From: a virus
Taxonomy: Duplodnaviria > Heunggongvirae > Uroviricota > Caudoviricetes
Direction: 5' to 3' (one strand)
DNA length: 15,351 nucleotides
IMG/VR virus record: IMGVR_UViG_2713896791_000011
Shown: positions 9,001 to 12,000 of the stretch, piece after piece
Layout: every line of letters starts with the position of its first letter
How positions within the stretch are numbered: position 1 is the stretch's first letter
Made by a program: the position numbers

Positions 9001-12000
9001 CTTTCACGCCCTGCTGCCAGGCGCCGGAAAAGGGCTCAGCCACCGCCTGAAACAGGCTGGTCCAGCCCGCCTCTCTTACGTCACGTCCTGATTTCTGGTT
9101 TTTTCGGGTTCGCCGTAAAAGGTTCCACATTCGCCATGCTCCGCATCACGTTTCTTTTTCTGACCTGCCGGACGTCGCACCGTGATGTACTCCGCCTTTC
9201 CCAGGCGAACCAGCACCTCCGCACACGGCTGTGCCACATCACGGATATCCCCGGCCCGGGCATCATGCGTGCCCTGCAGATATCGGATCTTTGCCATAAC
9301 CTGTTACGGGAGGCGCACGCCTCCCGTCCTCCTTATCAGACTCAGCCGCCGGACGCACTGCCGTAGTTCACTCCGGTGATCACCGCCACCGCCGCAGTAC
9401 GGCGACGACGCCAGTTGATCCAGCGCTCCGCACGGATGGCCACGCTGCCTGTCTGGAACATGGAAACCAGCTCCACCGGGGACGGCGTGGTACTGTCGCC
9501 GGTCGGCTCAGACTGCATTTCCAGTGATGCCTCGCGGGACATATCCACTGCCACGCCGCCGTCATCCGCCAGATAAATATCCGGGGCATTCACCAGCACC
9601 AGCTGGTCACCCACGTACTGGGAGACAATCACCGGCAGCCCCTGGAAGGAGCCACCCAGCAGGGTCATGTCCGGGTATTCCTTCTGACCCAGCGCATTTT
9701 TACGCATGGACAGTGCCAGGGCATTGGTGCTGGACATCAGCCAGACCGCACCGGTGGGCTGCAGGTTTGCTGCCACAAACTGTCCAAACGCNGCCTCTGC
9801 ATCCGCATCCGGGTTACCGGTTGATGCCGTGCCCTTCACATCATGGGTGATGGANGCCGGGGAGACATCTGCCACTGCGGCTTTTTTCGGGTCCACAAAG
9901 TCTGTATCCAGACGCGCCACCACCGCTTCCGCCAGCGCATTACGGACCAGTGCATCAGCAGCCGGACTGGAAAAACGGATCAATTCTTCCGTCAGTACCG
10001 CAATGGCCGACACCTTCGCATGACTGAAGGTGATGGATTCAAAATCAAACTTCGTCAGGGGTTTTGCCTTACCCTCACCCACCCAGCCGGCAGCACCGCC
10101 GGACACCTGGGCGTGCACACGGATATTGAATGGCACCTGACGAAGTGCAGGGATCCCGCCCTGACCAAATCGCCCGATAATGGTCTGCGGACGCAGGTAA
10201 TCAATAAAGTCCTGTGCGTATTCCTGATATTCAGACAGGCTGCCTGCTCACTGCGGATCCGTGGTGGTCCCCGCGCCCACTGCCGATTTCAGGACATGAT
10301 GCAGACGACTGTCATCCGGATACTGACGACGGGCCACTTCCAGGGCTTCAGATCGGACGCCTTTAGCCGCAGCCAGCGATTTGGCAAAGCGGGCGAAGCC
10401 AATCCCCTTATCCAGTTTCTGCTCCACACGGATCACCGGCGCAGAAGCCACCGCGGCCACATTCCCGTTACCGGCCTGTTTCACCGGCTGCGCCGTGGCG
10501 GCCTTACCGGCTTCCAGTTCACGCAGGCGCTTCAGGTGCGCATCCACCTGACGGATTTCCGCTGCGGTGTTGTCGTAATGCTCTTCCTCCTCCACATCCA
10601 GCGTGCGCCCTTCCTCTGCGGCTTTGGTCATGACCTCCTCAAGGGAGGCTGCCAGCGCTGCACGCTTGTTTTCAAAACTTTTAATCTGTTCGCCAATATT
10701 CATTATGGTCTTTTCCTTATGAAAAACGGTTGTTGACTGTGCCGCAGCGCCGGCAGAAGATGCGATTTTCACCACCGGTTTCCGGTTGCCGGACGCGGCA
10801 GAAAACGGGCGGTCGTAAGATTTAATGGTCCGGATGGTGCATTCCGCATTCGCGGGCACGGTGACGGCAGACACCTCCATCAGTTCCCAGCGCAGAAAAT
10901 GCAGTCCGCCTCCGTCCAGAAAGGTGTATTCATGGGGACGGAAGCCCACGGACAGCCCCCTGACCAGCCCGGTCTTAATGGCAGCCCAGGCCTCATCCAG
11001 CCGGGCTGCCATCTGGGAGGGCATCCCCGGCTCCGGCTTCACCAGCATTGCCGTGATTTCCAGCCCTTCCCTGACCCGACGCACCGTACACTGGCCTACA
11101 GGGCGGGAATGGTCATGCTGCCAGAGAAACGGGATCGTACTGCCAAACTCAGCCCCCTCCGGCTCCAGGATGTCACCATCCCGATCCGGAGAAGGCGTTG
11201 ACGCAATCCCGGTGATCACCCGTTCATCCTCACTGAAGGATTTCACCGTCAGCAGGGAACAGGCCCGTTTAAGAGTCACATCAGCCTCCTGAAAATAAAA
11301 AAACCGCCGCAGCGGTTCATGATGGTTACAGGGTGAGCAGGGTTATATGAAAAAAACCTCATACGCTTTCTTTTTCGGTTCCGGATTCAGGGACATCAGG
11401 GACACCGCATTGAAGAGCGCCATCAGCGGGTCAATTTTTCCCCGTCCGCTGGCCTGTTTGGTGATAAGAATGGCGTTACCTTTAGGCTCCACCCGGGCAT
11501 TACCGACACACCAGGCCATCAGGGGCTGATCACCGTGAATCAGCACCCCTTCAGCCAGTTTGCGCTCGGTGGTTTTGATGGCCCCGCCCAGCTTCCAGCC
11601 CTGGCTTATCCCCACCACACTCTCATCGGGGATCCCGGCTTCCGCCAGTGAATCCAGAATCTGCCCCACACCTGACGGGTCAATACCGATATGATCCAGT
11701 AACTCAGCCTCATGAATACGACGCACATACTCCGCCACTTCCGCCGTGTCATCCCCGACCCGACGGACAATCGTCATGTCTCCACAGGCCACAAAATCCT
11801 GAAACCGGGATGCCTCACTCTTCCGTCTGACCACCGCGGTTTCATGCACCCAGGCATGGCCCCAGCCCAGCCATTCGCGGGTTTCCCTGTCACGGCCAGT
11901 CACGTACATTCCCAGCAGATCATCCAGGCCCCCGCCGTCAATCCCCACCGTCACCACATCAGCGCGCTGCAGGATATCGTCCAGGCTGACGCGCCTGCCC

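Follow-up and report, generated by a model that had tools for sequence, protein, structure and literature searches.

The window, as we call the whole 15,351-nucleotide stretch of DNA analysed here, is a defective lambdoid prophage with 100% identity to E. coli O103:H2 12009 and 98.6% identity to Stx1a phages, and its module is carried by about 1,250 complete E. coli genomes, Stx1 and Stx2c phages among them. At the junction considered here the ORF calls put the genes on the minus strand, and terL, encoding the terminase large subunit, is followed by a fusion of prohead protease and major capsid protein, which are the flanking genes that an initial annotation of this DNA had named. The terL assignment comes from its ORF, from Pfam matches to TerL_ATPase and TerL_nuclease (PF03354, PF20441) and from the RefSeq annotation of the identical locus. 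In the window's strain the fusion gene is broken by a nonsense codon at 10250-10248, recorded by RefSeq as an internal stop; intact relatives encode 645 amino acids. On the matching E. coli O103:H2 12009 chromosome, a Q-family antiterminator gene (L001 3823-4641; PF03589 match, E = 4.7e-50) lies upstream on the same strand, outside the window, and is followed by an unbroken same-strand array of lysis, HNH, terS and terL genes that leads to a hairpin, hairpin 1. This is the placement expected of an internal terminator in a Q-antiterminated late operon. The features of the junction are as follows.

11343..13004, minus strand: terL, terminase large subunit gene
11343..11345, minus strand: terL stop codon (TAA 11345-11343)
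11319..11342, minus strand: 5' spacer from the terL stop to hairpin 1, 24 nt
11301..11318, minus strand: hairpin 1, GAACCGC-UGCG-GCGGUUU, 7 pairs including a closing G.U, tetraloop
11291..11300, minus strand: U-tract, UUUUAUUUUC, directly 3' of the hairpin 1 stem
11277..11290, minus strand: capsid translation initiation region (AGGAGG 11290-11285, CUGAU, GTG 11279-11277)
9342..11279, minus strand: prohead protease-major capsid fusion gene (Peptidase_S78 and Phage_capsid)

Between terL and the protease-capsid gene the only untranslated stretch is the 63-nt spacer, and hairpin 1 lies wholly within untranslated RNA, beginning 24 nt past the terL stop and ending 21 nt short of the capsid start. 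Its 5' arm runs from G11318 to C11312, the UGCG loop occupies 11311-11308 and the 3' arm runs from G11307 to U11301, with six Watson-Crick pairs (four G-C and two A-U) besides the closing G.U. The initial annotation had described a terminator-like hairpin, U-tract and Shine-Dalgarno sequence (SD) before the capsid gene, and this is confirmed, the interval it gave (11292-11317) matching exactly the 6-bp stem-loop plus U-tract. The free-energy calculation that it proposed as a check gave -8.9 to -10.2 kcal/mol for hairpin 1 and a folding z-score of only -2.05 for the whole terL-capsid spacer. The strand opposite hairpin 1 carries no U-tract.

The in-frame capsid start is GTG 11279, separated from the SD by 5 nt (CUGAU); the ATG at 11281 lies in another frame, with TGA immediately after it. 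The duplex between this SD and the anti-SD has an energy of -10.3 kcal/mol, which is equalled or exceeded in four other genes (terS, head-tail connector, head closure and gp10-like), ruling out uniquely strong SDs for the capsid and tail genes. The capsid and tail tube genes have free-standing ribosome-binding sites, whereas most neighbouring genes overlap by 4 nt. An outer helix pairing CCCUG..GCU, just after the terL stop, with CAGGAGGC was predicted to sequester the SD; it was rejected as not conserved, because common E. coli haplotypes break the pairing and the 5' spacer changes as fast as synonymous sites do.

Selection on the stem and U-tract, and their occurrence in relatives

Nucleotide diversity separates the parts of the spacer clearly. 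Pi is 0.094 and 0.040 in the two arms of hairpin 1 and 0.045 in the U-tract, which is constrained like the stem, and stem arms, U-tract and SD together span 0.04-0.09, compared with 0.18-0.20 at codon position 3. The loop (0.283) and the 5' spacer (0.176, near the synonymous rate and so evolving freely) are unconstrained, while diversity in the stem arms, U-tract and SD is 2-5 times lower than at synonymous sites. In eight loci, linked A-to-C and U-to-G substitutions replace an A-U pair of the hairpin 1 stem with C-G, a compensatory change, and 89% of cells are paired, compared with 80.9% in shuffles (none of 500 as high) and 36-54% when partners were slid. The stem and the U-tract of hairpin 1 are under purifying selection. 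The RNA is able to form a short GC-cored hairpin followed by a U-tract, and both are selected. Intrinsic terminators have a GC-rich stem of about 5-14 bp and, directly 3' of it on the transcribed strand, about 7-9 nt of U-rich sequence; hairpin 1 combines a GC stem and short loop, an abutting U-tract, an untranslated position and a compensatory change.

Where terL directly precedes the fusion gene, in relatives whose TerL is 57-84% identical (Enterobacter, Citrobacter, Morganella, Phlomobacter, Halopseudomonas and others), all lineages keep the hairpin, U-tract and SD with differing stems, at least nine lineages having different stems at the homologous site. These fusion-gene lineages hold the distance from hairpin end to start codon within a narrow 17-24 nt, and the U-tract is found in all relatives that have the spacer, always adjoining the stem. 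In relatives with the order terL-portal-protease-capsid, the hairpin stands before the capsid gene and not after terL. Among 59 loci of this classical order, the protease-capsid spacer reaches 30 nt or more in 22, all 22 of which contain a hairpin; 20 of the 22 have a long U-tract on visual inspection, the automatic count of our script undercounting U-tracts at these spacers. At the other junctions of the same 59 loci, terL-portal hairpins have no U-tract and no spacer separates portal from protease. Regardless of gene order, it is the 5' side of the major capsid gene that this feature marks in distant relatives. About 35 of the 59 have neither spacer nor hairpin, so the element is dispensable in many phages. 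In seven Burkholderiales relatives (Paraburkholderia) the U-tract stays beside the hairpin, 45-54 nt from the capsid start, and not beside the SD.

Further hairpins in the window and chance expectation

The initial annotation had reported the same pattern ahead of the tail tube and tape-measure genes too, and it is indeed there. One GC hairpin also follows the capsid gene.

9306..9327, minus strand: GC hairpin after the capsid gene, ACGGGAGGC-GUGC-GCCUCCCGU, without U-tract
5331..5347, minus strand: hairpin 2a, AGGUCAC-GGU-GUGACUU followed by UUUCUUUUUU, in tandem with and upstream of hairpin 2b
5290..5304, minus strand: terminator hairpin 2b, CCCGC-CGCGU-GCGGG, then UUUUUUAUUAUC, AGGAGG and ATG 5267 of the major tail gene
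3826..3847, minus strand: hairpin 3, AAAACCUGC-UGUG-GCAGGUUUU and UUU, then GGAG and ATG 3806 of the tape-measure gene

Hairpin 2b is conserved in a Klebsiella phage, in 569R6 and in a Burkholderia phage, and the HK542 record marks a rho-independent terminator at the homologous position. Its tandem partner 2a is weaker (-5.8 kcal/mol, with a borderline terminator score) and overlaps the tail completion gene's stop codon. Hairpin 3 (z-score -2.44) is conserved in HK542, Klebsiella phi12.2 and 569R6, and is symmetric, so that it could act bidirectionally. The post-capsid hairpin is very stable (-17.8 kcal/mol; z-score -3.10, none of 200 shuffles as stable) and not terminator-like. It is kept in relatives, a hairpin lying downstream of the capsid gene in 33 of 45 of classical order, and the capsid gene is bracketed by it and hairpin 1, as it also is by hairpins in lambda and HK542.

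A strict terminator definition (perfect stem, energy of -7 kcal/mol or lower, at least 6 U in 8) finds four terminators on the coding strand of the window, compared with 0.3 +/- 0.5 expected from 100 dinucleotide shuffles, none of which reached four. Three of the four fill intergenic spacers of 50-66 nt. From terS to the tail-assembly (I-like) array, three of the four spacers of at least 44 nt hold a strict terminator and the fourth a GC hairpin. A loose consensus scan shows no enrichment, with 12 found and 14.6 expected from shuffles, and is uninformative alone. On a d'Aubenton-Carafa-type scale hairpin 1 scores about +24, compared with about +30 for the trp attenuator; as the formula used mis-scores rrnB T1, this counts as weak support. 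For hairpin 1, the evidence from comparison far outweighs that from thermodynamics. The window shows no enrichment of promoter-like sites either (4 found, 8.1 expected from shuffles), so that this consensus scan too says little by itself, and a crude scan places none within 300 nt upstream of hairpin 1 on the minus strand. Searched against Rfam at E <= 1, the window gave a single match, a spurious snoRNA inside terL, and none in the spacer.

Candidate roles of hairpin 1

What might a terminator-like hairpin do immediately upstream of the major capsid gene? The initial annotation had called it terminator-like and offered three hedged roles, as a partial terminator, an RNA processing or stability element, or a translation enhancer. 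That it is terminator-like and functional is supported by the full set of intrinsic-terminator sequence features and by purifying selection. To the reading that hairpin 1 is a genuine Rho-independent terminator within a lambdoid late operon, read through by Q-modified polymerase, we give about an even chance on sequence grounds. During lytic growth, polymerase modified by the prophage Q at the late promoter would pass hairpin 1, and capsid mRNA would not be lowered because of this read-through; in the lysogen, unmodified polymerase arising from spurious or leaky transcription would halt there. If unmodified polymerase stops and Q-modified polymerase passes, expression of the capsid and tail tube would depend on antitermination, and an insulating role for hairpin 1 is what we infer from its sequence and position. 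Sampson, Hendrix and colleagues (PNAS, 1988) reportedly concluded that late-gene output in lambda is set by translation initiation and not by mRNA level, which is consistent with read-through. Since the spacer is only 63 nt, the U-tract may have a second function, as an unstructured U-rich leader to the strong, uncoupled ribosome-binding site of the capsid gene. Counting against termination, hairpin 1 is short and of modest stability (about -9 to -10 kcal/mol). Antitermination may also not extend to all relatives, since Pfam recognises no Q homologue in Burkholderia phage vB_E438, which shares the layout.

The hairpins before and after the capsid gene could instead act after transcription, delimiting an mRNA segment with its own processing and decay in the manner of papBA, puf and malEFG: the hairpin upstream would either stop exonucleases moving 3'-to-5' or cap a 5' end, and RNase E would cut the adjacent U-rich tract. 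Such a boundary would suit the bracketing of the capsid gene in the window, lambda and HK542, the frequency of the downstream hairpin in classical-order relatives, and the post-capsid hairpin itself, which without a U-tract looks like a stabiliser and not a terminator; a single-stranded AU-rich tract beside a stem is moreover the typical context for RNase E. We nevertheless regard a boundary as rather unlikely, because a stability hairpin needs no U-tract, yet the U-tract here is as constrained as the stem and always abuts it, and because a hairpin upstream of the capsid gene would shield terL mRNA, not capsid mRNA, from 3' exonucleases. Hairpin 1, lying 5' of the capsid gene and with a constrained U-tract, does not fit the description of a pap- or puf-type stabiliser. 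Alternatively, the hairpin could insulate the capsid ribosome-binding site from upstream coding RNA while the U-tract serves as an S1-binding or standby enhancer that gives high uncoupled initiation, as in the rnd leader. The narrow hairpin-to-start distance in fusion-gene lineages, the leader UUUUUUAUU(A/U)UC-AGGAG that also precedes the major tail gene both here and in phage 569R6, and the free-standing sites of the capsid and tail tube genes would fit this account. The translation enhancer suggested in the initial annotation is weakened by the seven Burkholderiales relatives, whose U-tract tracks the hairpin and not the SD as a U-rich enhancer would, and by the four genes with SD pairing at least as strong. 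Given also that the low-copy tape-measure gene has the same arrangement and that the lambda hairpin lies between two equally abundant genes, D and E, an element of translation is improbable.

Could hairpin 1 stop a fixed share of polymerases during lytic growth and so set transcript ratios, like T7 Tphi after gene 10? Attenuation has been proposed in the literature for the intra-operon terminators of phage L/P22, leaky terminators have been demonstrated experimentally in other phages, and hairpin 3, before the low-copy tape-measure gene, would be well placed for it. At hairpin 1 it would act in the wrong direction, cutting the mRNA of the most abundant protein relative to terminase, and the prophage has a gene for a processive antiterminator of the Q family. 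The partial terminator of the initial annotation is the least likely of its suggested roles, given the upstream Q gene in O103:H2 12009 and the opposition of attenuation to the protein ratios needed, and we hold it to be very unlikely. In lambda, late mRNA levels are said to be roughly uniform (Sampson et al., 1988), which also counts against attenuation. Finally, hairpin 1 could be the 3' end of an Hfq-binding prophage sRNA, derived from the terL 3' region or similar to PasB or StxS, made in lysogens and regulating host genes. A U-tailed hairpin is an Hfq-binding module, and the literature provides a precedent in PasB, an Hfq-binding sRNA lying inside a phage structural-gene operon with a terminator at its end. 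The core sequence of PasB is missing from the window even when five mismatches are allowed, the spacer matches no Rfam family, and no promoter-like site was seen upstream within terL, such sites not being enriched overall. The element is also kept in distant phages of other genera, where an sRNA regulating E. coli host genes is not expected, and this origin for hairpin 1 is only barely plausible.

Termination relieved by Q could be extended to a conserved "antitermination gate", in which terminators stand directly 5' of the genes for the major capsid and major tail proteins in lambda, in HK97-like phages and in fusion-capsid prophages of Gamma- and Betaproteobacteria, the U-tract doubling as leader of the ribosome-binding site and the GC clamp after the gene stabilising its message. 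We regard this generalisation as doubtful. Were it true, synthesis of abundant, self-assembling and possibly defence-sensed virion proteins would depend strictly on processive antitermination, and the gate would provide a general rule for the persistence of intra-operon terminators in late operons. The family is well populated, which makes it convenient for testing insulation of the lysogen from leaky structural-gene expression, mRNA stability and the tuning of translation. In Stx phages, control of late-operon read-through bears on both toxin and virion output, and a Term-seq data set is available for EHEC Sakai (PMC7547250; GEO GSE143631).

Comparison with known systems

The tR' terminators of lambda and of Stx phages, the latter the source of the StxS sRNA, are likewise intrinsic terminators in the same type of operon and are overridden by Q-modified polymerase. 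They differ in lying directly after the late promoter, where they gate the whole operon, whereas hairpin 1 sits among the structural genes, about 9.6 kb further downstream, and is not known to yield a short RNA. The arrangement at hairpin 1 is also reminiscent of the leader of rnd (RNase D), where a terminator-like hairpin and U8 upstream of the SD are reportedly required for translation (Zhang and Deutscher, 1992). The order of elements is the same (hairpin, U-run, SD and a non-ATG start codon), but the rnd leader is the 5' end of a monocistronic mRNA, whereas hairpin 1 is inside an operon and its enhancer role is putative. The stabilisers of papBA, puf and malEFG resemble the window in that hairpins bracket the gene for the operon's most abundant structural subunit; stabilisers of the classical kind have no U-tract and follow the gene they protect on its 3' side, which matches the post-capsid hairpin at 9327-9306 and not hairpin 1. 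Terminators directly 5' of a capsid gene are also found in the Pseudomonas phage 201phi2-1, where experimental mapping places T055 and T056 immediately before the major capsid gene, and where a link of these two with antitermination or timing has been suggested. That phage is an unrelated jumbo phage whose terminators follow dedicated capsid promoters, unlike hairpin 1, at which no promoter was seen.

The closest counterparts are HK542 and lambda. The HK542 record (NC_019769) annotates rho-independent terminators at positions homologous to those of the window, and lambda has the matching hairpin layout at D|E and after E. At HK542 and at lambda D|E, as in the window, a GC hairpin is followed by a U-tract and then by the SD of the next gene. 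The sites correspond as well, one ahead of the protease/capsid unit, one behind the capsid gene and one each ahead of the major tail and tape-measure genes, and in all three the late operon is of the Q type. The genome paper of phage L states that the roles of intra-operon terminators "are not known". Such terminators have been recognised in lambdoid late operons since the first genome sequences, and with its counterpart annotated in HK542, hairpin 1 is in itself routine. The capsid gene is typically flanked by hairpins, the upstream one with a U-tail and the downstream one GC-rich and without it, as lambda also shows. Compared with HK542 and lambda, the window differs in that protease and capsid are fused and the portal gene lies behind them, so that the terminator abuts terL, and its stem sequences are unrelated to theirs. 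What the present analysis adds is modest and comparative: besides this flanking of the capsid gene, the terminator follows the 5' end of the capsid gene through a change of gene order, and its stem and U-tract are measurably constrained.

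The spacer between terL and the capsid gene

Every gene in the window is carried on the minus strand; those around hairpin 1, the terminator-like hairpin 5' of the capsid gene, are listed in reading order.

Position not listed, minus strand: HNH endonuclease gene, first of the genes listed, before terS
13564-13001, minus strand: terS
13004-11343, minus strand: terL
Directly after terL, minus strand: 63-nt terL/protease-capsid spacer, with hairpin 1 at 11318-11301
GTG start at 11279, minus strand: Peptidase_S78 prohead protease fused to an HK97-type capsid domain (Pfam)
9327-9306, minus strand: hairpin ACGGGAGGC-GUGC-GCCUCCCGU, 3' of the capsid stop, -17.8 kcal/mol, z-score -3.10, without a U-tract
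Between the capsid fusion and the major tail gene, minus strand: 73-codon ORF, then portal gene, then head-tail genes
5267-4551, minus strand: major tail gene
After the major tail gene, minus strand: G/T chaperones, then tape-measure gene (3806-564)

The spacer reads CCCUGCUCACCCUGUAACCAUCAU-GAACCGC-UGCG-GCGGUUU-UUUUAUUUUC-AGGAGG-CUGAU-GUG on the minus strand. The initial annotation had placed a hairpin with a U-tract at 11292-11317, and the spacer there is exactly a 6-bp Watson-Crick stem-loop plus U-tract; CAGGAGG and the start codon follow 3' of it, and gene order and Pfam place terL and the protease-capsid fusion on its flanks, both as claimed. The true start of the fusion is GTG 11279, the ATG 2 bases 5' being out of frame and running directly into TGA. 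This ATGTGA (11281-11276, minus strand) overlaps the GTG start, its ATG 3 nt past AGGAGG and its stop codon immediately next, forming a minimal 'start-stop' ORF within the capsid ribosome-binding site; it occurs only in E. coli, and Enterobacter-type relatives have a plain ATG.

From terS to the capsid gene (window 9300-13600), the sequence matches a prophage of E. coli O103:H2 strain 12009 at 100% identity. Prophages approximately 95-99% identical to this segment occur in about 1,250 of the 5,426 complete E. coli genomes, and one genome often has several; the segment's identity to Stx1a-converting phages is 98.6%, and Stx2a- and Stx2c-converting phages also match. Beyond the window, the O103:H2 12009 locus has a gene of the Q antiterminator family (PF03589, E = 4.7e-50) approximately 9.6 kb upstream and in the same orientation. 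Next come the lysis, HNH and terminase genes, which places hairpin 1 inside a late operon, as initially assigned, and one of lambdoid type. This prophage copy is defective, because the RefSeq record gives the capsid gene as a pseudogene with an internal stop and flags the portal gene as frameshifted. The nonsense codon (10250-10248, minus strand) ends the fusion early, at residue 344; the intact relatives have ...TTTDPQW... there. Some copies whose capsid gene is intact share an identical hairpin 1 with the defective copy. Masking by the source collection, not biology, accounts for two runs of 50 N (7396-7445 and 13991-14040) and single N at 9792 and 9855; the genes affected are HNH, the capsid gene and the ORF that follows the portal gene.

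Enrichment and selective constraint

In the proposed folding-energy check, the z-score of the 63-nt spacer is -2.05, with 8 of 200 shuffles folding at least as stably, and thermodynamics by itself is poor support for hairpin 1, but stems satisfying a strict definition are enriched. A loose consensus scan of the window found 12 terminator-like sites against 14.6 expected. With a strict terminator defined as a perfect stem of -7 kcal/mol or lower and at least 6 U among the next 8 nt, the coding strand has four, compared with 0.3 ± 0.5 in 100 dinucleotide shuffles, none of which reached four, and three of the four are the initially annotated sites before the capsid, major tail and tape-measure genes. 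The sole strict match outside intergenic DNA is a strong terminator-like hairpin at 369-350 (minus strand), GGCAUGGU-GGUU-ACCGUGCC + UUUUUG, -11.8 kcal/mol, within the minor tail gene CDS (230-571). From terS to the tail-assembly (I-like) gene of the O103:H2 12009 locus there are only four gaps of at least 44 nt, each with a stable hairpin, and the remaining gene pairs mostly overlap or abut.

Among 160 loci encoding TerL relatives, wherever terL directly precedes a protease-capsid fusion, the spacer (37-93 nt) always contains a GC hairpin directly followed by a U-tract, and a GGAG-type Shine-Dalgarno (SD) sequence, with 17-24 nt from stem end to start codon. These lineages (E. coli, Enterobacter, Citrobacter, Phlomobacter, Morganella, Metapseudomonas, Azorhizophilus, Halopseudomonas and one more viral lineage) range in TerL identity from 84% down to 57%, and their stems differ: AACCGC/GCGGUU, GCCCGC/GCGGGU, CCCCGC/GCGGGG, GCCCCG/CGGGGC and ACCGC/GCGGU. 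In a MAFFT alignment of 13 distinct sequences, paired cells amount to 89%; shuffles give 80.9 ± 2.2%, none of the 500 reaching 89%, and slid partners give 36-54%; the covariation score is 0.249 versus 0.119, and the few unpaired cells are mainly one-column misalignment.

Nucleotide diversity (pi) in 62 E. coli and Enterobacter loci
Third codon positions, flanking genes: 0.18-0.20
5' spacer: 0.176
Loop of hairpin 1: 0.283
Stem arms of hairpin 1: 0.094 and 0.040
U-tract: 0.045
SD-to-start segment: 0.080

This diversity pattern is the signature expected of selection acting on the stem, U-tract and ribosome-binding site only. In the same 62 loci, a 5'-arm A-to-C change and a 3'-arm U-to-G change form a compensatory pair, present in the same 8 loci. 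A predicted SD-sequestering helix in the spacer was rejected, as it is not conserved in this set. Hairpin 1 and its U-tract form a canonical, co-directional element in untranslated RNA under purifying selection.

Hairpins around the capsid and tail genes

Fifty-nine relatives have the classical order terL-portal-protease-capsid (sampled gene identities confirmed by Pfam); none has a hairpin with a U-tract at the terL-portal junction, and there are no spacers at the portal-protease junction. The protease-capsid junction has a spacer of 30 nt or more in 22 loci; every one of these contains a hairpin and 20 have a long U-tract by eye, the script's U count being too low because extended stems absorb U residues. 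The element, though common, is dispensable: in the remaining loci of classical order, approximately 35, the protease and capsid genes overlap or abut without a hairpin. By the evidence of gene order, the hairpin belongs with the capsid gene rather than with terL. In Paraburkholderia and related prophages (loci L004, L008, L009, L051, L065, L149, L150, L020), the protease-capsid spacer has the terminator nested in a longer conserved outer helix, ..CCUCGCGC...terminator...GCGCGAG.. (e.g. L004, about 7750-7845; variant in L020). The whole multi-helix fold has -32 to -37 kcal/mol and may represent a regulatory RNA of greater complexity. The post-terL hairpin of a Neisseria musculi locus (L075, 5674-5698) is an inverted DNA uptake sequence pair, GCCGUCUGAA...UUCAGACGGC, from which Neisseria terminators are usually built.

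At the capsid/next-gene junction, 33 of 45 classical-order loci have a spacer, and in each of the 33 there is a GC hairpin of very high stability (-12 to -35 kcal/mol), usually without a U-tract. The window has this bracket too, with hairpin 1 5' of the capsid gene and the 9327-9306 hairpin, kept in fusion-gene lineages, just past its stop. Here (9334-9295, minus strand) AAGGAGG directly follows the capsid stop, and the 22-nt hairpin and 8 nt then lead to the ATG of the conserved 73-codon ORF (MAKIRYLQ...). The hairpin, if formed, brings the SD to approximately 8 nt from the start, a 'split' ribosome-binding site resembling in layout those described for T4 genes 38 and 25. The SD-hairpin-7/8 nt-ATG layout is retained in Enterobacter, Citrobacter and locus L132 with a different stem (GCGGGG/CCCCGC).

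The recurrence reported before two other genes is real: CCCGC-CGCGU-GCGGG + UUUUUUAUUAUC-AGGAGG precedes the major tail gene (hairpin 2, 5304-5290) and AAAACCUGC-UGUG-GCAGGUUUU + UUU the tape-measure gene (hairpin 3). A weaker hairpin at 5347-5331 (minus strand), AGGUCAC-GGU-GUGACUU + UUUCUUUUUU, overlaps the tail completion gene stop codon, making tandem terminator-like elements with hairpin 2. With an A-run on one side and a U-run on the other, hairpin 3 (3826-3847) has a terminator-like score on each strand and could therefore terminate transcription whichever way it runs.

Possible roles and known counterparts

What might a terminator do directly 5' of a capsid gene? Unmodified RNA polymerase would terminate at hairpin 1 and Q-modified polymerase would read through, so that transcription begun outside Q control would be kept out of the capsid gene and, at hairpin 2, out of the tail tube gene. 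In so short a spacer, the U-tract may double as an unstructured leader for an uncoupled ribosome-binding site, and hairpin 1 may in addition contribute to translation or to processing of the mRNA. We give this combination of termination, read-through and insulation roughly an even chance. That hairpin 1 instead marks an mRNA-stability boundary is unlikely, and a primarily translational role as a U-rich enhancer is quite doubtful, since in seven Burkholderiales relatives with a longer spacer the U-tract still adjoins the hairpin and lies 45-54 nt away from where the capsid gene starts, the strength of AGGAGG is not unique in this operon, and the low-copy tape-measure gene is arranged likewise. 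Attenuation during the lytic phase is distinctly improbable: capsid mRNA would drop relative to terminase mRNA, the equivalent lambda hairpin sits between the genes of two equimolar proteins, D and E, and lambda late-gene output is reportedly set by translation, not mRNA level (Sampson et al. 1988). Insulation is the most economical role because of this evidence against enhancer and attenuator. It is highly improbable that hairpin 1 forms an sRNA 3' end; the Hfq-binding sRNA PasB has been reported within a phage structural operon, but its sequence is absent from the window and this identity was rejected, and an Rfam scan of the window returned nothing relevant.

The initial observation is borne out, and hairpin 1 is clearly functional in the evolutionary sense. 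It is a fresh instance of a long-known, already annotated element type. The comparative points added, useful rather than surprising, are that the element follows the capsid gene through gene-order changes, that the constraint on it is measurable, and that two hairpins bracket the capsid gene, lambda included.

In the GenBank/RefSeq entry for Escherichia phage HK542 (HK97/HK022-like), 'rho-independent terminator' features are annotated before the protease and capsid pair, after the capsid gene and on both sides of the major tail gene, and our own scan also found a hairpin before its tape-measure gene. Hairpin, U-tract and SD precede the major tail gene in Klebsiella phage ST13-OXA48phi12.2, Escherichia phage 569R6 and Burkholderia phage vB_E438, the tape-measure gene in the first two, and the capsid gene in vB_E438, where Pfam recognised no Q homologue. 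Terminators just 5' of the capsid gene were mapped by experiment in Pseudomonas phage 201phi2-1, and the phage L genome paper proposes that terminators inside operons act by partial termination or by stopping spurious transcription without antitermination. In lambda itself, the hairpin AGGCCGC-CUGU-GCGGCUU (6099-6116), followed by UUUUUACGGGAUUUUUUU-AUG, separates D from the major capsid gene E, and a U-less GC tetraloop hairpin, AUGGCCC-UUCG-GGGCCAU, lies just past E (7163-7180), so that E is bracketed like the capsid gene in the window, by a U-tailed hairpin 5' and a U-less GC hairpin 3'.
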